Assembly: GCA_030149205.1 (NCBI GenBank)
Contig: JASBSB010000001.1
Coordinates: 960,001 to 992,000 of the forward strand
Direction: 5' to 3'
Source: Candidatus Heimdallarchaeota archaeon
Lineage (GTDB): Archaea > Asgardarchaeota > Heimdallarchaeia > Heimdallarchaeales > Kariarchaeaceae
Length of the DNA: 32,000 bases
Shown: one piece after another, positions 15,442 through 32,000 of the stretch
Numbering within the stretch: the stretch's first letter is position 1
Layout of the letters: each line of letters opens with the position of its first letter
Position numbers and translations under genes: made by a program
The notes under the pieces: generated by a model
Told to the model about the DNA's origin: nothing
Databases searched by the model: none
The model's input: only the letters and a program-made list of their open reading frames with translations

Positions 15442-16368
15442 TTGAACCCAGAGGTTGTCTCTTTGAGCTCTGATTTCATTCAGGTGGTCAATGAATCCTT
15501 GTCAATGATTCCTTTAGACTTATCTGAGTATGAAAACATCACCTCAGTTATCATCACAGATGATTTAAGATTAGTTGATATGGATAAAGTCTCATCCTCA
15601 AAGGGGATCTTATTGATCGATAATAATCCTGTTATCACAACCCATAAGGAAAACATCCTTGTTTGGGAAATAAATTTCACAGAGATCACTCCTTTCTTGC
15701 TCAACTTCAAGCTATCTGTCTTAAATAAACTGATTACAAAAGAAGTATTAAGATCTACCTCGTTTCAAAATTTAGATAGGCCCTCGCTAGAGGATAAAAA
15801 CACAATCATTTTTATCACAGGAAGTGCAGGTGCCCCTAGAATGATTACTGACATATTAACCTCCCTTCACAAAAATATTCACCCCATAATAGTCGTTCAA
15901 CACATTTCGAGGTCCTTTGACAAAAGGTTTGTAAATAGAATCAATTCCAAAGGAAAAATAAACGCGGTGTTGGTAAGTAGTTCTTCCCAACTAAAAGATA
16001 ACCAAATTTATGTTGCTCCAGCTGATTACCACATAGAGATAATAAATTCACCGAAGGGGTTTATTGTGAAGAAATCAGAAGGCTCAAAGGTAAATTTTAC
16101 AAGACCATCAGCCGATGTTACTCTGTTTTCTATGGCAAGGCTCTCAAGTTTGATTCCTTTGGTTGTAGTGATGAGTGGGATGGGAAGAGATGGAAGAGAA
16201 GGAATTAGAATTTTAAAAAGAGAAAACCCCGATACTGTGGTTATCGCATTAGATGAGGATGAAAGTCCAGTAAATGGGATGAATAGAGAGGTTATAAAAT
16301 CAAATTTTGCGGATTATGTTTTGACAACAACACAGATCATCTCATTCATTCAGAGATTTAGAGCTTGA
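15442..16368 (+). CDS. cheB: CheB-type methylesterase with degenerate N-terminal receiver-like region
   Basis: Ser-His-Asp triad motifs TGSAGA, VQHI, MSGMGRDG; also IYVAP.DYH and RPSADV. TTG start. Confidence 0.88.
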   Translation: MNPEVVSLSSDFIQVVNESLSMIPLDLSEYENITSVIITDDLRLVDMDKVSSSKGILLIDNNPVITTHKENILVWEINFTEITPFLLNFKLSVLNKLITKEVLRSTSFQNLDRPSLEDKNTIIFITGSAGAPRMITDILTSLHKNIHPIIVVQHISRSFDKRFVNRINSKGKINAVLVSSSSQLKDNQIYVAPADYHIEIINSPKGFIVKKSEGSKVNFTRPSADVTLFSMARLSSLIPLVVVMSGMGRDGREGIRILKRENPDTVVIALDEDESPVNGMNREVIKSNFADYVLTTTQIISFIQRFRA

Positions 16369-16998
16369 ACTTCTTTTAAATGCTAACGTCATCCAAAAGC
16401 GGCTTTGGTCAATCGTTTCCCATTCATACCCCTTTGATTTCATCTGATTGGTTAAATCATCTATTCTATGAAGATATGGTCTAAACGAGTTGGTTAATGC
16501 TGCAATTGGAGAAAAAAGCTTCAGAAGTACTCTAAGGAATAACCAAGGACGAGGAAGTGTGACCACAATTTCCTCAGCGTTTAATGACACACATTTATTC
16601 ATCAATGTCTCTCTATCAGGATAGCAACAAAGTACCCTATGCATGGAGACGCCATCAACACTTTCCGCATCATTGAAATTTTTAAAGTTAACCACCTTTA
16701 GATCAACACCTTCTGAAATTCCCATTTCCTTAAAATTTTCTGAAGCCTCATTGATCATTGATGTAGAGAGATCAATCCCAATAACTTTTGTTTTTGGAGA
16801 TTTATTTTTAACCTCCATAAGTAATGTTCCAGGACCACATCCTACATCTAGCACAGATTTAGGATTTGATTCAACTAGATAGTTTACATGTTTCATTGCA
16901 CTTATGGGTAAACCTGAGGACTTTTGTCTATCCGACATTCGCTTGCTTTCCCGATCAAAAAATCTACTAATGGTCTGATCCTTTGTTGTCTTATTCAT
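16342..16998 (-). CDS. Class I SAM-dependent methyltransferase (HRVLCCYPD subfamily)
   Basis: VLDVGCGPG, IGIDLS.SM, HRVLCCYPD. Confidence 0.9.
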   Translation of the reverse strand: MNKTTKDQTISRFFDRESKRMSDRQKSSGLPISAMKHVNYLVESNPKSVLDVGCGPGTLLMEVKNKSPKTKVIGIDLSTSMINEASENFKEMGISEGVDLKVVNFKNFNDAESVDGVSMHRVLCCYPDRETLMNKCVSLNAEEIVVTLPRPWLFLRVLLKLFSPIAALTNSFRPYLHRIDDLTNQMKSKGYEWETIDQSRFWMTLAFKRSSSSKSLNE

Positions 16999-17132: not shown

Positions 17133-18761
17133 ATGTCTAAGTTAATTTTGATAAATCATATTGTGAGTCAAAACCTTAGGCAATATGTTGAAAGTATAAA
17201 TAAAACCTGTGTTTCTGGGAACACATACTTTCTAGTATACTTTGGCATCGAGAGCTATTTATCTAAAGTAATCCAATTAATTGAGGACAAAGATCCGCTG
17301 GAGAGGGAAAGGGTGATATTTTCGATCTTTGGTGATTCGGATATATCGAAATGTGCGTCCCTCAATATTCTAATTAATAATATTCTAGGCTTAAAGTTGA
17401 TGAGAGAGACTAATTTCTCTGTCATTCGTGATGCCTTATTGAATCAATTTAATACGTTGCTGAATGAATACTATCAGTTACATGTATGTGAAACATCAGT
17501 TGGAGTTCAAAACTTAAATGACATTATCATACGATACCCATTGGTTGATATATTTGATCAAAACGAGAGAGCCGTACTCTCTGATAATCAATTAGTCAGC
17601 ACTCAACAAATTGAGATGCTCACCGTTGATAACACCAGATACCACTTTTTTGGATTAATTGGGGATAAATTAGACAAAGTTTCTGAATTTAAAGACAAAT
17701 TTCTAAATTCAATCCAGCTAAACGAAGTCATTATCATTAATGTGAATATGAGTGCTGTTTATCAACATTTGCTCTCCACAAATCTTATTCCTTATTCAGC
17801 AGTTTTATCAGAGTTAAAGCTAAATGATTGTTGGCTAAACCTTTCTGATCTTGAGAAACATCGATACTCAACTAGATTACCTGACCCAAATAGGAAAAAC
17901 CCAATCATTTTGGCTCCCTATTTCAAATTCATCAAAAACCACCTTTCTTCTGTTAACATCCAGTCCAATATCAACCTGTTTGAAATTTACCTTGTCTCAC
18001 ATGACAGAAAGCCTGAATTTATTAATTTCCTACTTTCAAAAATTTCTAAATTCAATGACATCATATTAGAGGATAAAGGAAGAACAGTCAAAATAATTTT
18101 CCCCCAGAAAGTTAGGTTAGATACTTTGTTTGATCCCAAATTTCCAGAGTTTGAACAAATAATAGAATCAACAACCCTAGGAGAAAATATGTATCTAACA
18201 ATATTGCATGGATTTCGATTGTCTCCAGAGAAAATATTGAATAACACCCTTCCTGATGAATATGAGCTCATAAGTGATAACAATTTAGGAAACTACTATA
18301 TCATTTCTAACGAAAAAGTAAACGTTAACTTACAGGATTATGTGGAGAATCGAAATGCAGTCAATCTCTTAAAAAACTTAAATGGACAGCAGTTTTTCCA
18401 AATTCAGGTGTTACCACAAACTGACAATTTGAGCTTTCCCATTTTAACTATCGCCCAGTGGAAGAATGGAGTTTTACAGTTTACATTACCTTCGCTCTTA
18501 GACCCATTAAGTAGTATTAACTCTTGGAAAGGGAAGTCGTTTGATGTTGTGTGTATTTTTGATAAAGGAACCTCTTTTCTGCTTAGAGGTGTAATCCAGA
18601 GTCACGATAATTTTGATTTAAAGTATTGGCAAACAAATTTTTTTGATAAAGATCAATTTAATTTGATAAAAAGAAAAAGTGGGCTATCTGAAACATTTGA
18701 ATACTATTGGCAGAGAAACCTTTATTCTTATGAAATTGAAGAGGTGAGGATGATTGAATAA
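17133..18761 (+). CDS. Hypothetical protein, possible C-terminal split-barrel (PNPOx-like) domain
   Basis: 542 aa ORF overlapping the menA start by 8 nt; C-terminal LSFP...GVLQFTLP...VVC...SFLLRGVI pattern. Confidence 0.65.
   Translation: MSKLILINHIVSQNLRQYVESINKTCVSGNTYFLVYFGIESYLSKVIQLIEDKDPLERERVIFSIFGDSDISKCASLNILINNILGLKLMRETNFSVIRDALLNQFNTLLNEYYQLHVCETSVGVQNLNDIIIRYPLVDIFDQNERAVLSDNQLVSTQQIEMLTVDNTRYHFFGLIGDKLDKVSEFKDKFLNSIQLNEVIIINVNMSAVYQHLLSTNLIPYSAVLSELKLNDCWLNLSDLEKHRYSTRLPDPNRKNPIILAPYFKFIKNHLSSVNIQSNINLFEIYLVSHDRKPEFINFLLSKISKFNDIILEDKGRTVKIIFPQKVRLDTLFDPKFPEFEQIIESTTLGENMYLTILHGFRLSPEKILNNTLPDEYELISDNNLGNYYIISNEKVNVNLQDYVENRNAVNLLKNLNGQQFFQIQVLPQTDNLSFPILTIAQWKNGVLQFTLPSLLDPLSSINSWKGKSFDVVCIFDKGTSFLLRGVIQSHDNFDLKYWQTNFFDKDQFNLIKRKSGLSETFEYYWQRNLYSYEIEEVRMIE
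18741..18747 (+). promoter_or_regulatory. Shine-Dalgarno site for menA
   Basis: GAGGTGA ending 6 nt before the TTG at 18754. Confidence 0.55.
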
Positions 18762-20388
18762 GAATCTTAGACAACTGCTTGCTGAATATAAATCGATGAA
18801 TATGTACCTTCCTGATAAATCAATTCTTGGAAAAATTGGGCTTTCTAAGAATGGAAAAATTTTGATCTCCTCAAATATTTTAAACTCATTATCAGAACCT
18901 GAAAAATGTGTTATTTATTGGTTCAAAGCCACACCAAGCTCATTGATTGAGTCAGACAGGACTCCAAGAGTTGCGATTTTCGGAGAAATTAATAATTCTG
19001 GAGAAATTATTGTGGAAAGAGAAACATGGTGGAACCGGGAGGATATAAATCTTGAAACTTTGCTTCAGAGACAAAGCAGTCTCAAAAAGTTCAATCCAAG
19101 CGATCGATTTATGAAGGTATTAAATAATCTTAAGTTACATGAGGAAGCTGTAGTTATAGGATCAATATTCAATAATCCAATTCACTTTAAAACAACAATT
19201 TATTCAAGATCAGAGGACAAGGTGATTCTTTTCATCCCACTATCAGAGATGAGAGAACAACAACTAAAGTATACAAGAACCTTAAAAGTTCTGTGTACTA
19301 TGAATAAAGAAATATCAAATCTAGAATTGATAGGAGAAGTCCTCACCTTGACCAAAAAATTTGACGGGTTGTATATTAACCTAAAAATTCGACGAATTGT
19401 TTATGGTGACCGTACAGAGTTTGAATATTTAGAGGGTGAACCTTATTCTGAGATGAAAGAATTTCTGACGGGATCTTGGGTCACATTACGATACTTTTTA
19501 GGACTTACCAGGTTCTCATTTTTTCTGTTCCCCTTAGTTTCTGTCCTTTTGACCATGTTTTATTTGTACTCATCTGGTGTCAGTTTGTCGCCGAGGTCAA
19601 TCATTTTAGAATTACTTGCGATTCTGTTTCTACAGTTATCCATGAATGTGTTTAATGACTATTTTGACAGTAAAAGTTACGCAGATATCTTTAATCCTGG
19701 ACAAGGTAGTATGCATGGAGGTTCAAAATTTATAAAATTTGAGCTTATAGAACCTTCGAAATCATTTCAGATAGGAGTAATTCTTTCAGTTCTAGGATTA
19801 TTTTTGAGTCTTTTGCTCATTTATTTTTCCTCTCGTTTCGATTTATTAGCCTTTGGATTTTTTGTTTTTCTTTTTGCTCTTGCTTTTTCAACCCCACCTT
19901 TAAAGCTCTCTTATAGAGGATGGGGAGAGATCCAGATTCCAATACTTCTGGTTGTCGCACCAGTTGTAGGTACAATTTATCTCTTTACTGGATCTTGGGG
20001 GTTTACACCCTTTTTTGAACTTTATGGTTTGATTATACCCCTTGCATTAACATTATTCCAATTTACATTGGTGAACAGTATGGCAGATTCAGAAGCAGAT
20101 AAAAAAGCAGGAAAAGAAACATTAGCTATTAAGCTAAGTGGTAAAAATTTAACTCTTCTGTTATATGCTTCTTTTGGACTTAGCTACGTATTTTATCCAC
20201 TCCTTAGTTATTTTTATAATAATTGGGCGTTGAGCCTATTGCTCATACTTGCAATTCCACACTTCCTAGTAATTAATCAAATCACTGGATCTGACCACAA
20301 CTCCAAACTAGTTGATATGATCTCAATTAAAATTCTCATATTGTATCTTGGTTTTGGATTAATTTCTGTTTTTGCCCTTATCTTTTGA
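18754..20388 (+). CDS. menA: MenA-like 1,4-dihydroxy-2-naphthoate prenyltransferase (UbiA superfamily) with ~240 aa soluble N-terminal extension
   Basis: NDYFD...AD, GGS, FSTPPLKLSYRGWGE, NSMAD.EADKKAGKETLAIKL; about 9 TM segments starting near residue 245. Confidence 0.85.
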   Translation: MNKNLRQLLAEYKSMNMYLPDKSILGKIGLSKNGKILISSNILNSLSEPEKCVIYWFKATPSSLIESDRTPRVAIFGEINNSGEIIVERETWWNREDINLETLLQRQSSLKKFNPSDRFMKVLNNLKLHEEAVVIGSIFNNPIHFKTTIYSRSEDKVILFIPLSEMREQQLKYTRTLKVLCTMNKEISNLELIGEVLTLTKKFDGLYINLKIRRIVYGDRTEFEYLEGEPYSEMKEFLTGSWVTLRYFLGLTRFSFFLFPLVSVLLTMFYLYSSGVSLSPRSIILELLAILFLQLSMNVFNDYFDSKSYADIFNPGQGSMHGGSKFIKFELIEPSKSFQIGVILSVLGLFLSLLLIYFSSRFDLLAFGFFVFLFALAFSTPPLKLSYRGWGEIQIPILLVVAPVVGTIYLFTGSWGFTPFFELYGLIIPLALTLFQFTLVNSMADSEADKKAGKETLAIKLSGKNLTLLLYASFGLSYVFYPLLSYFYNNWALSLLLILAIPHFLVINQITGSDHNSKLVDMISIKILILYLGFGLISVFALIF

Positions 20389-20450: not shown

Positions 20451-21821
20451 ATGACTGAAAAGGTATTGGAAACAGAGGTTGTTGTAGTTGGAGGTGGCCC
20501 TGCGGGAGTATCTGCTGCATTTACTTTAGGTAGACAGAAAATCCCGACGATTTTGGTTGATCGTAAACCCAAGGAAAAGATTGGTGATAAGGTATGTGGT
20601 GATGCACTTAACCCTATTTTGACAAAGTGGTGTTATGATCAAGTTGGTCTGCCACAACCTGATCCAGAGAAAAAAGAACTGATGGAAATAGCTGAGACAA
20701 TCGTTTTAAGAGGTTCTAACCCAAGGGTAATTTTGCCAATGGGTCTTGGTTCGGCGACAGTTGATAGGTTGAGATATGGACAAAAACTTCTTCACGCTGC
20801 AGAAGAACTTGAATCAGTTTCTGTTATGGCAGAAACCAGAGTGAAAGAGGTCATAGTTGAGAACAATGTTGTGAAAGGCGTTAAAGTTCTCACTCCAGAG
20901 GGTGAACAGTCAATTATGTCAAAAATAGTAATTGATGCATCAGGTTCATCTGGTGTTGTTAGAAGAAGACTACCATTGAGTATGTGCACAAAATTCCCTC
21001 AGAAAATACCAAGAGAAGAGATGATTGTCGCCTATCGTGAGATAATTAGAACCAAAGAACCACATCAGTTTCAGAAAGGACTGTACCTCACCTATGAAAA
21101 GGAACTTGAGGAGGTAATGCCAGGATATTACTGGTTTTTCAGTAGAGGTGAGCGTGAGCTAAACATTGGTCTGGGTTATTTAATGATAGAGGAGAATTTG
21201 GGGAAAAATATAAGAGAGTTAAATCAGAGCGTAAGAGATAGATATTTCCCTGACGCTGAGATCCTAGCCTCTCAAGGTGATCAGATCCCTGCTAGGATGC
21301 CTCTTCCCTCATTGGTTCACAATGGTTTTATTACTGCAGGTGATGCTGGTGCGTTGGCAAACCCATTAAATGGAGAAGGACACGGCCCCGCTTTATTTTC
21401 AGGAATTAAAGCAGCTCAAGAAATATTAAAAGTAAGAGAAGAGGGAAAAGAATACACTGAAGAACACCTTTGGGGTTACAACAAATGGGTTTGGAGTTAC
21501 TTTGGAGTAGAATTTGCTATGGGGATCGGAATCATTAAATTCATTTTCAAATTTGGGTATCCTGAGTTTGAATGGTTAATAGAACATGGGATCATAACTG
21601 AAGATGATATCAATACTCAGCTCTATGAGCCAGCAAAAGGACACAAAGGGATGTTAAAGAAAGTGTTTAAACTTGCTCGTAAACCAAGAGTTCTGATGGG
21701 ATTGAGAAAAACCCTGAATCATGTAGAGAAATTAGTGAAAATCGCACAAGAATATCCCGATATCGAAAATTTTGATGAATGGAATAGAAAGTTAGAAAAA
21801 GAACTTGAAACAGAGCTTTAG
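20451..21821 (+). CDS. Geranylgeranyl reductase family FAD oxidoreductase (prenyl reductase)
   Basis: GGGPAG, IGDKVCGDA, IDASG, VAYRE, PGYYWFF, NIGLG, AGDAG..NPLNGEG; motif spacing resembles Sulfolobus-type GGR. Confidence 0.92.
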   Translation: MTEKVLETEVVVVGGGPAGVSAAFTLGRQKIPTILVDRKPKEKIGDKVCGDALNPILTKWCYDQVGLPQPDPEKKELMEIAETIVLRGSNPRVILPMGLGSATVDRLRYGQKLLHAAEELESVSVMAETRVKEVIVENNVVKGVKVLTPEGEQSIMSKIVIDASGSSGVVRRRLPLSMCTKFPQKIPREEMIVAYREIIRTKEPHQFQKGLYLTYEKELEEVMPGYYWFFSRGERELNIGLGYLMIEENLGKNIRELNQSVRDRYFPDAEILASQGDQIPARMPLPSLVHNGFITAGDAGALANPLNGEGHGPALFSGIKAAQEILKVREEGKEYTEEHLWGYNKWVWSYFGVEFAMGIGIIKFIFKFGYPEFEWLIEHGIITEDDINTQLYEPAKGHKGMLKKVFKLARKPRVLMGLRKTLNHVEKLVKIAQEYPDIENFDEWNRKLEKELETEL

Positions 21822-21826
21822 TAACT

Positions 21827-23263
21827 ATGATTGATTGGTTTAACCTTTATCCAATTACCTCCAATAAAACATACCTCATATCTTCTAACCAGTCATACAC
21901 CTACAAAGAAATTGAACACATGATAAATGAATTAATCAAACAAATGGAGATAAACAATTTACCTCCCGGATCGAGAGTTGCTATTTTGTTAAATAACTCT
22001 CTAGAATACATCCTTATTATTTTTTGTTTAATCAAAGCCCAGATCCCCATCATTTTTTTAAACTCAAAAAATTCATTAGAAGTTAATTTAAACCAGCTTT
22101 CAGATGGACAAGCGACTCATCTCATTAGCTCCAATGAATTTGTTCCAAAAGATTCAGATTTGATTACTAGCTTATCAAACTTTAATAGTTTGACTCTTTT
22201 AAGGATAGCAAATTCTGACAAGAAAATCCTTAAACCTCTGGCTCCTAACACCCAATTTATTTTGTTCACTTCTGGCACCTCTGGAAAATCAAAAGCCACC
22301 CAACTTACTTTAGAAAATTTTTATCAAAGTGCTTTAACTTCCTCTCATAGATTAAAATATACAGAAAAAGACTCTTGGGTATTGACACTCCCCTTATACC
22401 ATGTGGGAGGGTTAAGTATTGTTTTGAGGTCTTTAATATTCAACATGACTGTTGTTTTAGTTGATCAGTTTGATTTGAAAACTATCAAAGAGGTGTCTGA
22501 GCAAAATTCACCTAGTATTATTTCTCTGGTTCCAACCATGCTTCACAGGATTTTAATCTCAGAAAAGCCAGAGTATTTACGGAGTTACAGGGTGATTCTT
22601 GTGGGTGGAGCAAGAACCCCCAATAATTTAATAAAACTGTCAAAAGAGCATAATCTAAATATTTTTGTCACCTACGGAATGACTGAAGCAAGCTCCCAAG
22701 TTGCAACAGCAATCCCAGAAGAGGTTTTTCAAGATCCAGAGACTGTAGGGATGTTACTGGAAAAGCTGGATGCTAAATTGGTCAACAAGATAGATGAGAA
22801 CGTGGGAGAGCTTTGCATCAAAGGACCACAGGTTATGAGAGGATACTTTAATGAGAGCTTCAGTGGTATTGATAATGAGGGTTGGTTTAACACTGGAGAT
22901 TTAGCTTCAATTTCAGATAATGGTTTTCTATACATTCAAGTCCGTAGAACTGACCTGATTGTCTGTGGTGGAGAAAACATTTATCCAAAGGAAATAGAAA
23001 GATTTGTTCTAGGGTTTAAGGATATAGAAGATTGTTTAGTGTTTGGATTGCCAGATGCTGAATGGGGGCAAATCGTTGCAATGGCAATTGAGACTCAAAT
23101 GGAGATGGACCTTTCAGACCTCAAATCAAAAATTGGCTTAAATCTAGGGACGTTTAAAAAACCACGACGGATTTACTCATTTAAAATATTTCCCAGATTT
23201 GAGTCTGGTAAACTTGACACAAGTAAACTGTTGAAACTAATAAAGAATAAGAATCAGACCTAA
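21827..23263 (+). CDS. menE: o-succinylbenzoate-CoA ligase (MenE-like, ANL superfamily)
   Basis: FTSGTSGKSK, LPLYHVGGL, SLVPTML, TYGMTEASSQ, WFNTGD, GGENIYP.EIE, GKLD; located next to menA. Confidence 0.8.
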   Translation: MIDWFNLYPITSNKTYLISSNQSYTYKEIEHMINELIKQMEINNLPPGSRVAILLNNSLEYILIIFCLIKAQIPIIFLNSKNSLEVNLNQLSDGQATHLISSNEFVPKDSDLITSLSNFNSLTLLRIANSDKKILKPLAPNTQFILFTSGTSGKSKATQLTLENFYQSALTSSHRLKYTEKDSWVLTLPLYHVGGLSIVLRSLIFNMTVVLVDQFDLKTIKEVSEQNSPSIISLVPTMLHRILISEKPEYLRSYRVILVGGARTPNNLIKLSKEHNLNIFVTYGMTEASSQVATAIPEEVFQDPETVGMLLEKLDAKLVNKIDENVGELCIKGPQVMRGYFNESFSGIDNEGWFNTGDLASISDNGFLYIQVRRTDLIVCGGENIYPKEIERFVLGFKDIEDCLVFGLPDAEWGQIVAMAIETQMEMDLSDLKSKIGLNLGTFKKPRRIYSFKIFPRFESGKLDTSKLLKLIKNKNQT

Positions 23264-23344: not shown

Positions 23345-24127
23345 ATGGAATTTTTAGATTCAATAGGTAAGAAACTAAGATATAGAAGATTTGTTGATCA
23401 AGAGTCAGGTGCTATTATAGCAGTCCCAATGGATCATGGCTTTACTCTCGGCCCTATCTCAGGGTTAAAGAACATCTCAAAAACAACTAATGCAGTTATC
23501 AAAGGGGGTGCTACCTGTGTGGTTGTTCATAAGGGCAATATACGGAATATAGCAACTCTACCCCCTGATAAAGGTATCATAATTCATGTATCTGGTTCAG
23601 TTAATTCATCACCTCATTCAAATCAGAAGGTACTGACAGGTGGAGTTGAAGATGTTCTTAGGTTAGGAGCTGACGGTATTTCGACCCATGTCAATGTTGG
23701 TGCAACTGGGGATAAGGACATGATTGCAGATCTTGCAAAGATTAGTTCCGATGCAAGCAAATTTGGAGTGCCAGTATTAGCAATGATGTATGCAAGGAAT
23801 GATGATGGTATGACCTCCACTGATGTCTCTTCACTTGCACACCTTGCAAGATTAGCTGAGGAAGCTGGTGCAGATATCGTTAAGGTAAATGCATCTAAAC
23901 TGGGAAAGGGATTTGATGAGGTGGTGCAAGGAACAAACATACCTGTAATTATTGCAGGGGGAGACAAAACCAGCAACTTTGAGACATTTTTAAACACAGT
24001 CAAATCATGTGTTGAGTTAGGTGCAAGTGGAGTATCCATTGGGAGAAATATCTTCCAACAAGAAAATCCTGAACAGGCCATATCAAGGGTTATTTCTGTT
24101 GTCAGAGAAGCGATGAGGGAGAGATAA
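23345..24127 (+). CDS. aroA': 2-amino-3,7-dideoxy-D-threo-hept-6-ulosonate synthase (class I aldolase, MJ0400 type)
   Basis: GKKLR.RR, VPMDHG, IIHVSGS, S.HVNVG, AMMYAR, GADIVK (Schiff-base Lys), IAGG, IGRNIFQ; directly precedes DHQ synthase II. Confidence 0.92.
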   Translation: MEFLDSIGKKLRYRRFVDQESGAIIAVPMDHGFTLGPISGLKNISKTTNAVIKGGATCVVVHKGNIRNIATLPPDKGIIIHVSGSVNSSPHSNQKVLTGGVEDVLRLGADGISTHVNVGATGDKDMIADLAKISSDASKFGVPVLAMMYARNDDGMTSTDVSSLAHLARLAEEAGADIVKVNASKLGKGFDEVVQGTNIPVIIAGGDKTSNFETFLNTVKSCVELGASGVSIGRNIFQQENPEQAISRVISVVREAMRER

Positions 24128-24129
24128 AC

Positions 24130-25143
24130 TTGCCATCTCAATTTCTTTTAGATACAGAATCAGAATCATTTTCTGAACTTTTGGAGACCATTTACACTAA
24201 GGTACAAGGAGTCATTACAAGGGATAATGAGATACTGGATTCTAAAGGTCTACCAGTGTATCAGGTTAAAAATCATAGTATCATGGCAGACTCTGGATTG
24301 ATTGGAAAAGTTGTAGAGATCAATTCCAACAGTGATATGCAAGAAATCATGGGGTGGGAACCTGAGGATAGTATTCAGATACTACTGATCAAAACCTCTG
24401 ACTGGAGAATCATTCCTATAGAGAATCTTATTGCTAAGTTTCATAGGCTGGGGGTAAAACTAGGGGCTTGGGCAAATTCTGTTGAAGAGATAAAACTTCT
24501 TGAAAACATCCTAGAGCTAGGTGTGGATCAGGTTGTTCTAAAAGTAACAGACACGGTAAGAACGGATATAGAAAAATATCTTGCTGCTTCTGCTTCAGAC
24601 AAGATTGAGCTAATTGACCTTGAGGTAGAATCAGTGGAAAGAATTGGAAACGGAGATAGAGTTTGTGTTGATACCTGTGCCCTCTTAAAAAAAGGAGAGG
24701 GGCTTTTGATCGGAGTAACCAGCAAATTATTCGCTCTGATTCAGGCAGAAGTTGAAGATTCAGGCTATGTAAACCCAAGGCCCTTTAGAGTCAATGCTGG
24801 TCCACTTTCAGCATATGTCTTGGGAGGGGATAAAACCAACTATCTTTCAGAGCTAAAAGCAGGGAGTCAAGTGACTGTGGTTTCAAAAACTGGAGAAACC
24901 AGAAAAGAGTTAGTTGCAAGAGTCAAGATTGAGAGACGTCCAATGTTACTGTTGAGATTGAAAGTAAACAATACTGAGGCTCCACTCATACTCCAGGATG
25001 CTGAGACTGTAAAGCTCATCACCTCCAAAGGAGATTCCGTAAGTGCTGGAGACCTTAAGAAAGGGGATCTCATCAAAGGTGCTTTGAAAGAATTCGGTCG
25101 CCACTTTGGAATGGAAGTAGATGAATTTATTGAGGAAAGATAA
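24130..25143 (+). CDS. aroB': 3-dehydroquinate synthase II (MJ1249 type)
   Basis: PIENLIA, GDRVCVDT, RPFRVNAG, YLSEL.AG, KIERRPM, LQDAETV, GRHFG; TTG start. Confidence 0.96.
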   Translation: MPSQFLLDTESESFSELLETIYTKVQGVITRDNEILDSKGLPVYQVKNHSIMADSGLIGKVVEINSNSDMQEIMGWEPEDSIQILLIKTSDWRIIPIENLIAKFHRLGVKLGAWANSVEEIKLLENILELGVDQVVLKVTDTVRTDIEKYLAASASDKIELIDLEVESVERIGNGDRVCVDTCALLKKGEGLLIGVTSKLFALIQAEVEDSGYVNPRPFRVNAGPLSAYVLGGDKTNYLSELKAGSQVTVVSKTGETRKELVARVKIERRPMLLLRLKVNNTEAPLILQDAETVKLITSKGDSVSAGDLKKGDLIKGALKEFGRHFGMEVDEFIEER

Positions 25144-25149
25144 TCGGTT

Positions 25150-26640
25150 ATGATAGCTGGAATAGTTGACTCAATTGAACTTGTCAAATCTGATATCTCA
25201 GATAACAATCTTTTGGAATTTAGAATTGATCTGAACTCTGAGCTGATCTCAAAGATCAGTGAAGCACCTCAGGATCAAGTAATCTTGACTTACAGAAGCA
25301 TAGATGAAGGAGGGAGAGGAGAAGAATCTGACAGATATAAGATACTCTCTGAATTAAGTCGAATTCCCACAGGTTTTATTGATCTTGAGATCTCGAGGGA
25401 TGCAAAATTCCTAGCAGAAAAAATGTATGAAATTGTTCAACCAAACATCATCCTCTCTTCCCACCAGTACCTGAAACCTATGCGAGAAACATACTTAAAG
25501 TTCAAAGAAAGTATTAAAACATTTATTTTGAATGTTTTAGGTGAAGAGGATGAGAATAAACAGCTACCTCAACTCATTAAAAGTATAGAGAAAACGTTGC
25601 ACAAGAAAATTATCATAAAGTTTGTTGGAGACCCCATCGACACTGTTGATTATCTGAAGACCTATGACATCATGAGTAAGCACTTTGAAAGGATTATCTG
25701 CTTAGGATTAAATAATTTTGCTCACATAGGTCGAACTGCAAATAGAAAACTAAACCAATATCTCATCTTTGCATCTTTGAATCAATCACAGAGATTCCCT
25801 TCCGTCACCGAGCTAAACAATCTGGTAGAATTAAATGGAGCCTTTACAGGGTTAATTGGAGATCCAATAGAACATTCACTGTCTCCTCTCATTCACAATC
25901 AACTCTTTGAATCGCTAAATTTGTCAGGATACTATCATCTACTTAAGGTAAACTCCTCAGAAGACTTGGGGTACCTCATAAACAAGCTACAGCTATTAGA
26001 CTTTACAGGAACAAACGTTACAATTCCCTACAAGGAGGATATTATTCAACATATTGACTCTCTCTATAAAGAGGCGGAGGAGCTAATGTCAGTAAATACC
26101 ATTAAATTTGAAAAAAGGAGAATTAAGGGTTATAACACTGACTGTTCAGGATTTTCTACATTCTTGAGATCCCATGGTTTAGAAAAAAGTCAGACAGCCC
26201 TTGTTTATGGGGCAGGAGGTGCCTCAAAAGCTGTGATTTATTCGCTACTGAAAGAAAATATTGAAGTTACCCTAGTTAACAGAAGCTTAGAGAGAGCAGA
26301 AACCTTGAAAGAAACATTTAAAGGAAAAATCATGGTGTCTTCCAAAGAACAATCACAAAAACAGAGCTATGATTTATTTGTAAATTGTACACCATTAGGA
26401 AGAACTGGTGATATTAGTGCCATCCCTGAATTTGGAACGTTTAACTCAGCAATGATTGACCTTTCATATTCAACCAAGAAAACAGGTACTGTTAAACTTG
26501 CGGAGAAATTAAATTTACAAAGCTTTGACGGTAAAGAAATGCTGTTTCATCAAGCAGTAGATTCATTTGAAATCTGGTTCGATAAAGAAGTAGATAGAGA
26601 ACCTTTACTTGACAAATTTTTGAAGGAGGTGTCACAATGA
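25150..26640 (+). CDS. aroD-aroE: Fused type I 3-dehydroquinate dehydratase / shikimate dehydrogenase
   Basis: N-half: LEFRID, LTYRS..EGG, IDLE, LSSH, IIIK. C-half: GDPIEHSLSP, NVTIPYK, VNT, NTD, GAGGAS, VNRS, NCTPLG, GKEMLFHQA. Confidence 0.9.
   Translation: MIAGIVDSIELVKSDISDNNLLEFRIDLNSELISKISEAPQDQVILTYRSIDEGGRGEESDRYKILSELSRIPTGFIDLEISRDAKFLAEKMYEIVQPNIILSSHQYLKPMRETYLKFKESIKTFILNVLGEEDENKQLPQLIKSIEKTLHKKIIIKFVGDPIDTVDYLKTYDIMSKHFERIICLGLNNFAHIGRTANRKLNQYLIFASLNQSQRFPSVTELNNLVELNGAFTGLIGDPIEHSLSPLIHNQLFESLNLSGYYHLLKVNSSEDLGYLINKLQLLDFTGTNVTIPYKEDIIQHIDSLYKEAEELMSVNTIKFEKRRIKGYNTDCSGFSTFLRSHGLEKSQTALVYGAGGASKAVIYSLLKENIEVTLVNRSLERAETLKETFKGKIMVSSKEQSQKQSYDLFVNCTPLGRTGDISAIPEFGTFNSAMIDLSYSTKKTGTVKLAEKLNLQSFDGKEMLFHQAVDSFEIWFDKEVDREPLLDKFLKEVSQ
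26625..26631 (+). promoter_or_regulatory. Shine-Dalgarno site for aroK
   Basis: GGAGGTG ending 5 nt before ATG 26637. Confidence 0.55.
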
Positions 26641-27512
26641 AAAGCATCACTTCTCGAACAGGTAGTGCTATCACAGTACTGAATGCCATGAAAAGTGGAA
26701 TAGGTGCAGCAATCGGCATAAGAGAGTATACAGATGTAAGGATAGAAGAAGGAGAGGGAATTTCTTTCAATATAAATCCAAGCCTTAATGATTTCAGGCT
26801 TGTTGAGGCAATAATTAATGAATATCAAACCCAGACAGGAGTAAAGATTGAGAACATCACAATACAAACTGATGCACCATTCCCTCCTGCAATGGGGATG
26901 AAAACTTCGAGTTCTGTCGCAAATGGATTAATTGAGGCACTCAACAGATATTTTGGAATCGAGATGGAAACAAATAAGTTAATCGGAATTGGTGCTGAAG
27001 CATCAATCAACGCAGGAGTTTCAATAACTGGAGCTTTTGATGATGCTTATGCCAGCTACCTTGGTGGTTTAGCTTACACTAACAATGAGAAAAGGGAGCT
27101 GCTAGGGCTATTTTCTGCACCTGAAAATTATGATGTGGTGCTTTTGTTACCAGACTACCCGATCCCTAAAGTCTTACTCAAGAACGTAATCCAATTGGTA
27201 GATGATGGACTGATCGAAGAGGCAAGAGAATCATTTGAAAAAAGACGACTTGTTGAGGCAATACAATACAATACAGCTGCATACGCCTCTGTATTTTTGC
27301 CTGATCCTGACATCATAACCAGATTAGAAGAGTTAAGTTGTGAGGTGATAGGACTAAATGGTGGTGGACCAGCAATGTTTGCTATAACCAAACCAAAGGT
27401 CACAGAAAGGTTTGTAGAAGAGGCAAAAGAGCTGATGCCAGAGTTGGTCTTATTAAAAACCACTTTTAGAAAATTGAACCGTGGAAAATTAAGGAGCTCG
27501 CCAGATGATTAA
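26637..27512 (+). CDS. aroK: Archaeal shikimate kinase (GHMP superfamily)
   Basis: AITVLNA, G.GAAIGI, PPAMGMKTSSS, ITGAFDDA.AS.LGG, GLNGGGP. Confidence 0.95.
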   Translation: MKSITSRTGSAITVLNAMKSGIGAAIGIREYTDVRIEEGEGISFNINPSLNDFRLVEAIINEYQTQTGVKIENITIQTDAPFPPAMGMKTSSSVANGLIEALNRYFGIEMETNKLIGIGAEASINAGVSITGAFDDAYASYLGGLAYTNNEKRELLGLFSAPENYDVVLLLPDYPIPKVLLKNVIQLVDDGLIEEARESFEKRRLVEAIQYNTAAYASVFLPDPDIITRLEELSCEVIGLNGGGPAMFAITKPKVTERFVEEAKELMPELVLLKTTFRKLNRGKLRSSPDD

Positions 27513-28782
27513 AGTTTACCCATCTAAACTATCAGGAACCATTAACCCCCCACCAAGCAAAAGCGTGACTCATCGAGCATTAATCCTTGCTGGGATGTGT
27601 CAGGCAGGATCGACAATCACTAACAAGTTAGATGGAGAGGACACTAATGCAACTCAAGCGGTTTTAGAGAGGATGGGGATGTTATTTAAGGAGTTTTCAA
27701 CTAATCGACTCTATGTATCCAACGTAATTCAACATGGAGCTGGAATGGCAGATTGTAAAAATTCAGGCACGACAATCAGACTCTTAACTGCAGTGCATGG
27801 CAATCTTACTGAAAAGACGACTCTAACTGGAGACAGTTCGTTATTAACACGACCTATGCAAGACCTTACACAATCTCTAAGAAACATTGGTATAGAAATA
27901 GAAGATACAGATGGAAAACCACCAGTGACAATCTCTGGAAAAAGGAGAGAGGGAAATCAAATAATCGATATTGAGGGCAACAAAAGCTCACAATTTATCT
28001 CTGGGCTTGCCTTATATGCAGCAATGAGACCAAACAAATCAGTTACTTCTATTCGGATACTTAACAAACTAAGCTCTAAACCTTATCTTGATCTCACTCT
28101 TAAAATGTTAGAAGAAATTGGCACTGACATCTCATGGTCTGATGATAGAACTCTGAAGGTGATCAGTAGGTACCCCTATATGAAACATGATTTTTATGTA
28201 CCACCGGATGCCAGCTCTGCTGCATTCTTTCTTGGAGCTGGGGTGTTGCGAGACAACAAAGTTACTGTTGAAGGAAATTTCTCAAGGTATCATCAGGCAG
28301 ATTACCAGTTAATTGAAATATTACAACAGTTAGGGGTAAATCTAGAATTCGAGAACTACAAAATTATTATTACTGGCAGCAAACTTATTGGTGCAGATAT
28401 AGATTTAAGCAATGCACCAGATTTATTCCCAATTGTTTGTGTAATTGCAAGTTTTGCAGAAGGAAAATCTCACATTTATGGTGCAAGCCATTTAAAGTAT
28501 AAGGAGACAAACAGAATTAAGACAACTGCTGCACTCATAAAAGGAATTGGTGGAATGATAGAAGAAAAAGAAGATGGGGCAATTATCACAGGACAAAAGA
28601 CCCTTAAAGGGGGTACAGAGATAGATTCGTTTGGTGATCATAGGATAGCCATGGCTGCAGCAATCGCTGGAACTGCAACTGATGAGCCAGTGACAATAAT
28701 TGATGAAGAATGTGTGGCTGTTTCATACAGGGATTTTTTTATGGATTTACAACACATAGGAGGAAAGGTTGAGGAAGTATGA
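27505..28782 (+). CDS. aroA: EPSP synthase (3-phosphoshikimate 1-carboxyvinyltransferase)
   Basis: PPSKSVTHR, NSGTTIR, L..RPM, SSQFISG, SKPY, PDASSA, KETNRI, DHRIAM. Confidence 0.97.
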   Translation: MIKVYPSKLSGTINPPPSKSVTHRALILAGMCQAGSTITNKLDGEDTNATQAVLERMGMLFKEFSTNRLYVSNVIQHGAGMADCKNSGTTIRLLTAVHGNLTEKTTLTGDSSLLTRPMQDLTQSLRNIGIEIEDTDGKPPVTISGKRREGNQIIDIEGNKSSQFISGLALYAAMRPNKSVTSIRILNKLSSKPYLDLTLKMLEEIGTDISWSDDRTLKVISRYPYMKHDFYVPPDASSAAFFLGAGVLRDNKVTVEGNFSRYHQADYQLIEILQQLGVNLEFENYKIIITGSKLIGADIDLSNAPDLFPIVCVIASFAEGKSHIYGASHLKYKETNRIKTTAALIKGIGGMIEEKEDGAIITGQKTLKGGTEIDSFGDHRIAMAAAIAGTATDEPVTIIDEECVAVSYRDFFMDLQHIGGKVEEV

Positions 28783-29870
28783 ATACCTTTGGCACAGTGT
28801 TTCGAACAACATTAATAGGTTCCTCACATGGAAACCTGGTTGGAGTGATCATCGAGGGTATCCCTCCCAACTTAGAGATAGATATATCAAATATAGAGAC
28901 CTTTCTGGCAAGACGGGCACCAGGGCAGTCTAAAGTAACTACAAGAAGAAAAGAAAAGGATAAACTCATTGTCGAAGCTGGATTGTTCAAACAGAGAACC
29001 ACCGGTGAACCATTTGTTGCTTTTGTAAGAAACTCTGATGTGGACTCAAGCTACTATGAAGAGATTAAGGACACGCCACGTCCAGGACACGCAGACTATC
29101 CCGCTTTTGTCAAATTTGAAGGTGCTAATGATTACAGAGGTGGAGGAAGATTTTCTGGCAGGATGACTATTGGGTTGGTTATTGCTGGAACTATTGCAAA
29201 ACAGCTGCTGAAACAGGTTGGAATTGATGTACGTGCATACACCAAAGAGATTGCAGGTCTTGAATCTGAAGTCATCAACACCACTGAAGATTATATTTAC
29301 TCTGAACAGAATATCGTTCGCGTCCCTGATAATGAAATGATTGAAAGTGTCACCAATGCAATTATGAAAGCCCGAAAGGATGGGGACAGCGTTGGTGGAA
29401 TTGTTGAATGCACCATTAACAATTTACCCGTTGGTGTTGGAGAACCCATCTTTGATTCAATTGAAAGTAAGCTCTCACACATCATGTTTAGCATTCCAGC
29501 TGTAAAGGGAGTTGAGTTTGGATCTGGATTCAATGCTGCAAGGATGAAAGGAAGTGAGCATAACGATGAATATTTTTATAATGAATCTCAACAGATTCGA
29601 ACCAAAACCAACAATGCAGGAGGAATCTTAGGAGGAATTAGCAATGGAATGCCAGTCGTCTTTAGAGTGGCATTCAAACCTACATCATCCATCCCCAAAA
29701 TTCAGACAACTGTTAATCTTCAAGAAAAGGGAAAACTCGAGAGCCTTAAGGTAAGAGGAAGGCATGACCCATGTATTGTTCCTCGTGCGGTTCCTGTGGT
29801 TGAGTGTTGTGCTGCAATTGCAATCTACGACTTAATGTTACAAGGAGGTATAACGACACATGCAGACTAA
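28779..29870 (+). CDS. aroC: Chorismate synthase
   Basis: G.SHG, TTGEP, RPGHAD, GGGRFSGR, SIPAVKG, NNAGGILGGISNG, FKPTSSI, GRHDPC. Confidence 0.97.
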   Translation: MNTFGTVFRTTLIGSSHGNLVGVIIEGIPPNLEIDISNIETFLARRAPGQSKVTTRRKEKDKLIVEAGLFKQRTTGEPFVAFVRNSDVDSSYYEEIKDTPRPGHADYPAFVKFEGANDYRGGGRFSGRMTIGLVIAGTIAKQLLKQVGIDVRAYTKEIAGLESEVINTTEDYIYSEQNIVRVPDNEMIESVTNAIMKARKDGDSVGGIVECTINNLPVGVGEPIFDSIESKLSHIMFSIPAVKGVEFGSGFNAARMKGSEHNDEYFYNESQQIRTKTNNAGGILGGISNGMPVVFRVAFKPTSSIPKIQTTVNLQEKGKLESLKVRGRHDPCIVPRAVPVVECCAAIAIYDLMLQGGITTHAD

Positions 29871-30927
29871 GAAGAAGGTAGTGGTATTAGGAGGAACTGG
29901 ACTTATTGGACAACAGTTTATTAGAATGCTTAGTAACCATCCAATGTTTGAGCTGGTCGGAATTTATGCCTCTGAAAGATCCACAGGAACTGACCTTAAA
30001 GATATTTGGAGATTACCACATACTGAGTGTCCCGAGGAGTTCAAAAATTTGATCATCCAAAATCTGGACACCCTGAATCCTGAGGATTTTCAGGTGTGTT
30101 TCTCTGGCCTACCAAGCAGTATTGCTGGAGAGCTTGAGGATAATCTGAGGATCAGAGGAAAAGCCGTCTTCAGCAATGCATCCTCTCACAGGATGGATGA
30201 GGATGTCCCTATACTCATCCCCGAGATTAACAGCGAGCAGATTAGACAGATAGAGTTACAGAGAAAGAGATATAACACAGAAGGATTCATCATAACAAAT
30301 TCAAATTGTTCCATATCGGGTGTAGCAATTTTTTTGGATGCATTAAGAAAAATCGTTAGTTTTGATGAAGCATTCGTTTCCACGTATCAAGCCACCTCAG
30401 GTGCTGGATTTGCAGGCCTTGAGAACAAAAGTTTTACGGATAATGTCTATCCTTTCATCCGTTCTGAAGAGGAAAAGATGAATGAGGAGGGTAAGAAGAT
30501 CCTTGGACATCTTACAGATGAATTGAGGATTGATCCATATCCAGTGAAAATCATAGCCCAGTGCCTTCGTGTTCCCGTGATAGAGGGACATACTGCTACA
30601 ATCACCATACCACTGAAGTTTAACGGGACGAAGGAGGACATAATCAATGCACTTCGAAACTACAACTCACCTTTACAACTTACCACACATACCGTAGCCC
30701 CACGCAACCCCATCATTGTTTTTAATGAGGAAGACAGACCTCAACCAATCCTTGATTCTTATATTGGTACTCCAAATCCAGCAAAGGGAATGGGTGTAGG
30801 TGTAGGAAGAATCCGTTATCAGGATGGTTACCTCAAAGCAATTGTCTTGGCTCATAACACAATTCGTGGTGGTGCTGGTGGGTCAATTCTCAATGCTGAG
30901 CTTGCTGTCATCCAGGGGTACATCTAA
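29860..30927 (+). CDS. asd: Aspartate-semialdehyde dehydrogenase (archaeal type)
   Basis: LGGTGLIGQ, SNAS.HRM..DVP..IPEIN, catalytic NCS, TYQA.SGAG, RVPV..GH, HNTIRGGAGG. Confidence 0.96.
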   Translation: MQTKKKVVVLGGTGLIGQQFIRMLSNHPMFELVGIYASERSTGTDLKDIWRLPHTECPEEFKNLIIQNLDTLNPEDFQVCFSGLPSSIAGELEDNLRIRGKAVFSNASSHRMDEDVPILIPEINSEQIRQIELQRKRYNTEGFIITNSNCSISGVAIFLDALRKIVSFDEAFVSTYQATSGAGFAGLENKSFTDNVYPFIRSEEEKMNEEGKKILGHLTDELRIDPYPVKIIAQCLRVPVIEGHTATITIPLKFNGTKEDIINALRNYNSPLQLTTHTVAPRNPIIVFNEEDRPQPILDSYIGTPNPAKGMGVGVGRIRYQDGYLKAIVLAHNTIRGGAGGSILNAELAVIQGYI

Positions 30928-30930
30928 AGT

Positions 30931-32000
30931 ATGGTTGAGGTTCATAAATTCGGGGGTGCCTCATATAAGGATCAAAACAGCATTAAAATTACTCTGAAAC
31001 GAATTCAGAGTCTTTCAGATAAATCAATTGTTGTAACCTCAGCATTTTATGGAGTGACTGACCACCTTCACTCTTACTCTAGAATTTCATCTTTGAATGA
31101 TGTCGATAAATTTATTTCCAAACTTTTACAGATGCATAACTCAAGACTTGATGGAATTTCAGAAATAAAGATAAGCAGAGATTTGAGAGAGGTTGTTGAG
31201 CTTTATGAACTCTTGAAGGGGTACTCTATCACTGGAATAGATACACCCAGGTTTAAGGATCTCGTTATCTCATTTGGTGAACAAATCTCTGCAAAATTAC
31301 TCTCAAATATTTTGGATGCACCTTATGTTGACCCAGCTGAATTTCTACTAACAACTGATGAGCATTATTCTGCATCAGTTCTGATCAAAGAGTCCAAAAA
31401 AGTGACTATTGAAGCTTTACTCCCATTGTTTGAGGTCTCTAATATACTAATTGTACCGGGTTATTTCGGCAAAAACTCCAAAGGTGAAATTAGTCTACTC
31501 GGAAGGTCTGGTACTGACTACTCGGCGGCTGTCATTGCAAACATGCTTAACGCAACCAAATTGGTGATCTGGAAAGATGTTACCGGCTTCATGTCTGGGG
31601 ATCCAAGGGTGGTCGGATCCCCCCAAATCATTAAATTTTTAAATTATAGTGATGCAGCAGATCTAGCATTTCATGGTGCAAAACTGTTACATCCAAAGTC
31701 AATTCACCCAGCAAGAGAGCTAAACATCCCAATAGTTATCCGAAATCTATTTGATGAGATTTCTGAGACCGTGATCTCAGATTCGACCCCGCAGATCAGT
31801 AATATAACCTATAAGTCAGGACTCAAGCTAGCAAAATATGCTTCCAAAGATCTTCATAATATTTTTCAGGAATTTCTGAGAAAAGAGCAAAGGGGTGAGA
31901 TCGAGATTGTTCTTATCCATAAATTTCCGAATAACTCATGGATTCTGTATGATGATTTCTTGAATGAAGCAGAAAGTTACTGTATTGTATACGTGAAGGG
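30931..32000 (+). CDS. lysC: Aspartokinase, 3'-truncated by the window edge (not in the ORF track)
   Basis: My translation from ATG 30931 is open to the end of the window: KFGGAS, VVTSA..GVTD, SFGE..SA, VPGYFG, LGRSGTDYSA, WKDV.G..SGDPR, LAFHGAKLLHP. Confidence 0.95.
   Translation, partial: MVEVHKFGGASYKDQNSIKITLKRIQSLSDKSIVVTSAFYGVTDHLHSYSRISSLNDVDKFISKLLQMHNSRLDGISEIKISRDLREVVELYELLKGYSITGIDTPRFKDLVISFGEQISAKLLSNILDAPYVDPAEFLLTTDEHYSASVLIKESKKVTIEALLPLFEVSNILIVPGYFGKNSKGEISLLGRSGTDYSAAVIANMLNATKLVIWKDVTGFMSGDPRVVGSPQIIKFLNYSDAADLAFHGAKLLHPKSIHPARELNIPIVIRNLFDEISETVISDSTPQISNITYKSGLKLAKYASKDLHNIFQEFLRKEQRGEIEIVLIHKFPNNSWILYDDFLNEAESYCIVYVK

Follow-up and report, generated by a model that had tools for sequence, protein, structure and literature searches.

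The 32,000-nucleotide stretch of a Candidatus Heimdallarchaeota genome analysed here (the window: contig JASBSB010000001.1, positions 960,001 to 992,000) contains a gene whose product joins a membrane prenyltransferase domain of the MenA family to a soluble N-terminal region of about 240 residues. This region is predicted to form two split-barrel modules of the PNPOx type, D1 and D2, and the fusion gene overlaps an upstream gene whose product ends in a third such module, U. The architecture is new, its component families are known, and it occurs widely in a single archaeal class, the Heimdallarchaeia. Judged by its sequence, the fusion is a strongly diverged MenA-family paralogue and not the MenA of its genome (3.3 Mb, ~35% GC, 93.5% complete).

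A MenA-family fusion beside a canonical MenA

The C-terminal part of the fusion belongs to the UbiA superfamily. The PF01040 profile aligned with 61.7 bits (cut-off 34.2) to residues 267–506, residues 247–544 contain several hydrophobic stretches with Kyte-Doolittle values of at least 1.6, in keeping with a multi-pass membrane domain, and both Asp-rich motifs of the superfamily (NDxxDxxxD and DxxxD) are present. Among 21 fused proteins, D302, D305 and D311 were invariant, and N441, D445, D449 and K454 nearly so. Since the Asp-rich motifs are intact, the fusion is probably still a prenyltransferase. A sequence-only reading of the window had proposed that residues 1–240 form a soluble region ahead of the MenA-like part, and this was borne out: the UbiA match begins only at residue 267, and the 19-residue Kyte-Doolittle maximum of the region is 0.75, with no membrane segment. 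For the 542-residue upstream protein, the maximum was 1.18.

The same reading had labelled the gene MenA, a name that we do not retain. The best NCBIfam models for the fusion are those of dihydroxynaphthoate (DHNA) polyprenyltransferases, that is MenA, at scores far under their cut-offs (TIGR00751, 37–40 bits against 102.15; NF004751, 67 against 264), which places the protein outside the MenA equivalog. A canonical MenA of 303 residues is encoded at G000:C10:2113-3024 and passes both models (231 and 318 bits, respectively); MenB (413 bits), MenD (382 bits) and MenG (217 bits) were also located elsewhere in the genome. It is because the genome has this canonical copy, on another contig, and the fusion scores far below the MenA cut-offs, that we regard the fusion as a diverged paralogue. 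A PDB sequence search with the UbiA domain gave no match, and a related-locus search with the single fusion protein returned only a flavobacterial MenA. For the window gene, the plain annotation MenA is to be avoided, and pathway reconstructions that count the fusion as MenA are right for this genome only through the canonical copy.

The upstream reading frame ends with a TAA codon at 18759–18761, beyond the TTG start of the fusion at 18754, and the resulting 8-nucleotide overlap with its Shine-Dalgarno-like site (Table 1) agrees with what the sequence alone had suggested. Start/stop overlaps are also present in the orthologues at loci L003, L007 and L005. The database gene call for the fusion begins 14 codons later, at ATG 18796, yielding 530 residues. 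We favour the TTG start because residues 1–14 align with the N-terminal helix of the orthologues and are modelled as helical by AlphaFold2 (AF2). The later database start, together with a word-index homologue search in which residues 1–245 matched only themselves, might suggest that an assembly or frame error fused an unrelated open reading frame to MenA. This explanation, to which we attach next to no probability, is effectively refuted: a contig from a second, independent metagenome study spans 18627–18999 without indels, the source sequencing run has an even depth of 79 over the region, the genus has three further species with an open orthologous fusion, and open frames for the fusion occur in dozens of genomes and in 56 cluster representatives. 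A near-identical strain, sharing 52% of sampled words, is present in a hydrothermal-vent metagenome of another study; in the covered parts of 17280–20388, this strain differs from the window by 29 single-base changes and no indels.

Split-barrel modules in two coupled genes

For residues 1–250 of the fusion, AF2 predicted two beta-rich modules with helices between them, at a mean predicted local distance difference test score (pLDDT) of 73.7 that rises to 87–94 across residues 120–220 in D2. The strands of D1 lie at residues 15–92, followed by a helix at 100–111, and those of D2 at 131–217, matching the repeats at ~1–95 and ~118–220 that had been read from the sequence. Each module, U included, has an xVxIxG-type strand (VAIFG at residue 73 and LELIG at residue 190 of the fusion, LLRGV at residue 483 of the upstream protein), and its Gly occupies the strand that, in the alignments, holds the most conserved residue, likewise a Gly. 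The sequence-only reading had further proposed that all three segments are PNPOx-like split barrels. This held for each of them on different grounds, namely structure and profile for D2, structure only for D1 and profile only for U, with the AF2 models of D1 and D2 falling among split barrels and not among unrelated folds in structure comparison with VIA-align.

The D2 model superimposed on the GS26-like protein 2hq7 with a VIA-align Z of 11.4 and a root-mean-square deviation (rmsd) of 2.7 Å over 114 residues, and Foldseek linked it to PNPOx/GS26 proteins at E 1.6e-4. The F420-binding split barrels 3f7e, 5jv4 and 5jab were among the matches of the D2 and D1 structure searches taken together. 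By profile, the D2 of two-domain fusions matches single-domain fusions (hhalign 96%, E 4.6e-9), and a profile of the two-domain N-termini matches the one-domain forms through its second half, with E 3e-7 to 1e-5 per genome; the link between the window's D2 and its relatives is also backed by the alignment itself. Several relatives, among them single-domain fusions and the D2 of G018, pass the PNPOx_N model PF01243 (cut-off 28.1 bits), including the second domain of L005 (37.5 bits), L011 (42.2 bits) and L017 (42.4 bits), and further representatives score 28–32 bits (P0032, 32.0).

A D1-only AF2 model (pLDDT 75.6) was compared with 48,161 PDB chains in a wide, unbiased VIA-align search that did not use Foldseek. 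The best match had a Z of 7.3 and an rmsd of 2.6 Å over 94 of 112 residues, and nearly all of the 50 matches listed were split barrels binding flavin mononucleotide (FMN) or related PilZ/YcgR-N barrels. Foldseek with the D1 model gave no significant match (best E 0.24). Sequence comparison of D1 returned nothing in Pfam, only 28–40% in hhalign against D2, and chance-level matches in a PDB profile search. A Z of 7 alone is ordinary; it is because the match list is nearly exclusive to such barrels, and because a DGYP-type N-terminal motif can be read in less diverged D1 sequences, that a degenerate split barrel is the best reading of D1. Taken together, the models support a split-barrel fold for D1 as well as D2.

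The third repeat had been placed in the last ~130 residues of the upstream protein, and U is indeed homologous to D2 (hhalign 92.9%, E 3.8e-7) and also matches the single-domain fusions (hhalign 92.7%, E 4.3e-7). Other genera of the family, and a second family, encode a protein of 135–162 residues directly upstream of the two-domain fusion, and its gene often overlaps the fusion start. The alignment of these small proteins with the upstream protein and its three genus orthologues covers the last ~140 residues, up to a shared YYWKR-type end motif. The positional orthologue of U in genome G018, a stand-alone protein of 162 residues, passes PF01243 at 28.7 bits, and the small upstream protein of G006 reaches 21 bits. 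Because U aligns with small PNPOx proteins and matches D2 by profile, the earlier count of three repeats, shared between two coupled genes, is correct. The alignments indicate that, in the window's genus, the small PNPOx partner became the C-terminus of a protein of about 476–542 residues.

The upstream protein had no Pfam or NCBIfam match, and as a single query against 83 genomes it recovered only itself; its orthologues, of 476–508 residues in three other species of the genus, were then located by position. Its N-terminal ~400 residues (17133–18329) gave no usable match in a protein atlas search and align poorly even inside the genus. This part appears, from sequence comparison, to be a genus-restricted addition, possibly shared with genome G007, that precedes the small PNPOx partner. 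On the heterodimerisation that the sequence-only reading had suggested as possible, a complex prediction of D1-D2 with U returned a score of 0.00, which amounts to no answer and counts neither for nor against binding.

Distribution and gene context in Heimdallarchaeia

A six-frame single-sequence search of 61 relatives with the N-terminus of the fusion gave two marginal matches. Searching the 61 relatives with the UbiA part revealed that this domain ends open frames of 448–603 residues in most of them, with N-terminal extensions of two sizes, ~155 residues (one domain) and ~240–300 residues (two domains). The genomic distribution was then resolved by using the canonical MenA as query against 83 Heimdallarchaeia genomes. 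The window's family, as well as G014 and G018 of another family, have a canonical copy of ~300 residues (45–57% identical) plus a two-domain fusion of 517–603 residues. A single MenA-family match was obtained in nearly all genomes belonging to genus g11, as in several from other genera; it is a one-domain fusion in a frame of 448–505 residues (448–473 in the g11 genomes). Many genomes of genus g14 have an unfused MenA-family gene of 320–360 residues. The one-domain fusions score 103–119 bits on TIGR00751, just above its cut-off, and are named MenA by NCBI.

A search for the fusion across UbiA-family proteins, the check that the sequence-only reading had proposed, recovered it widely: when 1.84 billion representatives were scanned, the fusion was present in 56 of the 148 top-ranking proteins whose UbiA match was near-complete. 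One cluster of fused proteins came from Hodarchaeales. That reading had also been unable to match the architecture to a described one. The literature searched on Heimdallarchaeia with menaquinone, on UbiA with PNPOx and on split barrels with prenyltransferases yielded no description of the fusion, which agrees; the fusion is nonetheless common in Heimdallarchaeia, and its one-domain form is already annotated automatically, with one IMG record named 'MenA/general stress protein 26'. In the cluster of P0011, a one-domain fusion of 462 residues, the members carry the label Candidatus Marinimicrobia/Neomarinimicrobiota in NCBI, whereas all other proteins of the family are heimdallarchaeial; faulty binning or labelling, or transfer, might explain this.

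In a quick tree of the UbiA domains, most two-domain forms grouped together on long branches, with a terminal branch of 1.49 for the window protein against a median of 0.71. The deep branches were weakly supported, and a G018-type two-domain protein fell inside a one-domain clade; for these reasons, the tree gives no conclusion on the number of D1 gains. The junction motif YGxxTExE is a conserved element of the two-domain proteins: G218, E222 and E224 are invariant in the two-domain alignment (A1) and make up three of its five invariant columns.

In the other genera of the window's family, the fusion follows a UbiE/COQ5 methyltransferase gene (PF01209, 80–90 bits) and the small PNPOx gene, and precedes an alpha/beta-hydrolase gene. 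The hydrolase genes 3' of the fusion in G006 and G008 (L055:4199-5089 and L057:3127-4089) could encode a MenH-like enzyme or a thioesterase-like step of the cassette. In the window's genus, the conserved neighbours are a geranylgeranyl-reductase (GGR)-family gene and two class I methyltransferase genes. The neighbourhoods of one-domain fusions (thermosome, amidohydrolase, Rag-like GTPase) were uninformative.

In the window itself, the archaeal shikimate route lies directly 3' of MenE, within a plus-strand run at 23345–31998 that encodes a DeoC-type aldolase, DHQS-II, aroD-E, a GHMP-type shikimate kinase, EPSP synthase, chorismate synthase, asd and an amino-acid kinase. The canonical MenA of the genome (locus L068) adjoins CheC and CheA on the 11.9-kb contig C10. 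In G002 and G003, canonical MenA has a CheB-like gene as its neighbour and lies ~3 kb downstream of the fusion, and the window has CheB at 15442–16368. The two MenA-type genes may have been ancestral neighbours, or contig C10 may belong near the window locus.

Table 1. Features of the fusion locus, in window coordinates
Feature	Position	Strand	Basis or remark
Class I S-adenosylmethionine methyltransferase	16342..16998	-	many methyltransferase families match; PF01209 25.7 bits, cut-off 20.1; homologue beside the G001 fusion
Upstream gene, 542-residue soluble protein	17133..18761	+	open reading frame; N-terminal ~400 residues without family and fast-evolving; C-terminal ~140 residues, third split-barrel module
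U module, PNPOx-like split barrel, residues ~400-542 of upstream protein	18330..18758	+	hhalign to D2 and to single-domain fusions
Shine-Dalgarno-like GAGGTGAGG	18741..18749	+	4 nucleotides 5' of the TTG start of the fusion
8-nucleotide gene overlap, fusion TTG start and upstream stop	18754..18761	+	translational coupling
Fusion gene, 544 residues	18754..20388	+	open reading frame; UbiA domain
D1, first split-barrel module (degenerate), residues 1-112	18754..19089	+	AF2 model and structure search
D2, second split-barrel module, residues 113-232 including leading helix	19090..19449	+	AF2 model, VIA-align, Foldseek, hhalign
Junction motif YGxxTExE (YGDRTEFEY)	19402..19428	+	just before the helix entering the membrane domain
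UbiA-superfamily membrane prenyltransferase domain, MenA family, residues 246-544	19489..20388	+	PF01040
First Asp-rich motif NDYFDSKSYAD (N301, D302, D305, D311; residues 301-311)	19654..19686	+	sequence
Second Asp-rich motif DSEAD (D445-D449)	20086..20100	+	sequence
GGR-family flavoprotein	20451..21821	+	adjoins the gene pair in 4 of 4 species of the genus
MenE (o-succinylbenzoate-CoA ligase)	21827..23263	+	TIGR01923 347 bits, cut-off 330

Proposed role, alternatives and known systems

The ligands of PNPOx-like barrels are planar cofactors or substrates (FMN, flavin adenine dinucleotide, F420, heme, phenazines) that bind at barrel-barrel interfaces, and the N-terminus and active site of UbiA-family enzymes face the cytoplasm. 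We favour, as narrowly probable, an account in which a MenA-family paralogue carrying D1-D2 and coupled to the U-bearing gene uses its split barrels to handle a planar redox molecule. The paralogue would descend from the PNPOx-MenA fusion that is widespread in Heimdallarchaeia; where a canonical stand-alone MenA coexists, in the window's family and one other, the fused copy is the fast-diverged two-domain form with a small PNPOx partner. D1 and D2 would be cytoplasmic, placed where the prenyltransferase opens on that side and perhaps in contact with U, and the membrane domain, taken as active because both Asp-rich motifs are intact, would be an aromatic prenyltransferase of naphthoquinone biosynthesis. 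The barrels might bind a flavin or deazaflavin, or the naphthoquinol head-group itself, and might hold DHNA or demethylmenaquinone reduced, or pass it along, for prenylation and then C-methylation. Taken alone, this head-group handling or redox mechanism is tentative and less likely than not.

The Heimdallarchaeia are held to be the archaeal class nearest eukaryotes. Menaquinone respiration has been predicted for them (bioRxiv 10.1101/2024.07.04.601786), and a flavoprotein-like domain on the only MenA-family gene found in many of the genomes searched points to a cofactor, redox or substrate-handling need at prenylation that is absent from the textbook pathway. In phylloquinone synthesis, according to PMC5299476, citing Fatihi et al. 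2015, the demethylphylloquinone reductase NdbB/NDC1 must act before MenG. A bolder version, in which the modules constitute an unrecognised flavin- or F420-dependent naphthoquinone head-group reductase (or oxidase) on MenA, with the triple-barrel paralogue and the methyltransferase making a second, distinct membrane quinone, seems unlikely to us.

Several observations weigh against the favoured account. The window's modules are very diverged for classical flavoproteins, none of D1, D2 and U reaching the threshold of PF01243 or another Pfam family, and identity between N-terminal regions is no more than ~20% even inside the genus. PNPOx-like proteins usually bind the FMN phosphate via Ser/Thr-x-Lys and Arg; when basic or hydroxyl residues of this kind were sought at positions expected for the family, by sequence alignment, none was conserved in at least 40% of the 33 one-domain or the 20 two-domain sequences. 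The sequences give no sign of cofactor binding in either fusion group, and the flavin or F420 binding that had been proposed for the modules is not evident. The supply of F420 is likewise uncertain, with the biosynthetic CofD above cut-off at G000:C7:237648-238544 and no CofH (FO synthase) found in the 93.5%-complete genome. Canonical MenA and MenG are present, so the fused copy is unneeded for standard menaquinone synthesis. Finally, in the low-depth contigs of the near-identical strain, the N-terminal part has 4 changed and 2 silent codons and the UbiA domain 7 changed and 13 silent, a tiny sample that is compatible with relaxed constraint on the N-terminal part and too small for a selection test.

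The missing Pfam signal, the unconserved phosphate-binding residues and the low identity inside the genus, together with the long terminal branch and the drop in TIGR00751 score relative to other fusions, would also be expected if the modules were degenerate and non-catalytic. The arrival of a canonical MenA would then have freed the fused copy from constraint, leaving barrels without a cofactor site that serve as a structural, oligomerisation or ligand-sensing scaffold, or that are drifting to loss. We consider this a real possibility, albeit clearly on the unlikely side, since both genes are open and keep their length and order in all four genus species and across the family, the Asp-rich motifs and YGxxTExE are invariant, the folds are still predicted at pLDDT 74–94, and the start/stop coupling is kept. 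That MenA, MenB, MenD, MenE and MenG form a complete canonical set in the same genome might instead point to a second product, overlapping with the head-group reading: the fused paralogue would act with its partner, the methyltransferases and GGR to make a different prenylated redox lipid (an altered naphthoquinone, or some other aromatic or heterocyclic compound with a prenyl group), and the barrels would be tailoring oxidoreductases like PhzG. The cassette of related genera, with its own UbiE-type methyltransferase, PNPOx protein and alpha/beta hydrolase, fits this reading, as does the occurrence of PhzG among the structural matches of D2 (Z 9.5–9.8), although PhzG matches no better than dozens of other split barrels. 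Enzymes resembling MenA have been described that prenylate dihydroxyphenazine (PMC4044012). The adjacent head-group biosynthesis genes, however, are those of the men and shikimate routes only, and the one-domain fusions are apparently ordinary, being the sole MenA of many genomes, which makes the module compatible with standard menaquinone synthesis. We judge a second product improbable, if worth keeping in view.

The two barrels also recall PilZ/YcgR-like cyclic-dinucleotide receptors, which would here regulate the prenyltransferase: the two-barrel proteins PlzA, MotI, MrkH and VCA0042 occurred among the Foldseek and VIA-align matches, and YcgR-N and VCA0042 reached Z 9–10 on D2. Whole-length alignments to such receptors were poor (rmsd 16–19 Å, TM 0.21–0.28), the sequence homology of the relatives is to PNPOx_N and not PilZ, and inspection of fusion residues 1–250 and U for the PilZ motifs found no RxxxR and a single isolated [DN]xSxxG (DKSILG). 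On these grounds we rejected the receptor reading as extremely improbable.

Measured against known systems, the fusion shares with MenA (TIGR00751/NF004751) the UbiA-fold membrane domain of its C-terminal 300 residues, with both Asp-rich motifs, and it has MenE two genes downstream; its less diverged fused relatives just pass TIGR00751. It differs from MenA by 245 extra soluble residues. The fold of D2 and D1 is that of the PNPOx/GS26 group (2hq7, 2fhq, 3ec6), to which the relatives provide a link of sequence homology; whereas the PNPOx/GS26 proteins are free homodimers, the window modules are tethered to a membrane enzyme. The one-domain PNPOx-MenA fusions (444–516 residues; Heimdallarchaeia including Hodarchaeales) have the same domain order, homologous UbiA domains and a single domain homologous to D2. 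Unlike the window fusion, they have one barrel, with a helical insert that D2 lacks, and no coupled PNPOx partner; usually no other MenA-family gene was found in the same genome. Mycobacterial Ddn, of the FDOR-A group, is a split-barrel F420H2-dependent quinone reductase. With FDOR-A and NdbB/NDC1, the likeness would be one of functional analogy, that of a reductase keeping a naphthoquinone reduced, in the case of NdbB/NDC1 before methylation by MenG; neither has a specific sequence relationship to the window modules, and NdbB/NDC1 has another fold, that of a type II NAD(P)H dehydrogenase.

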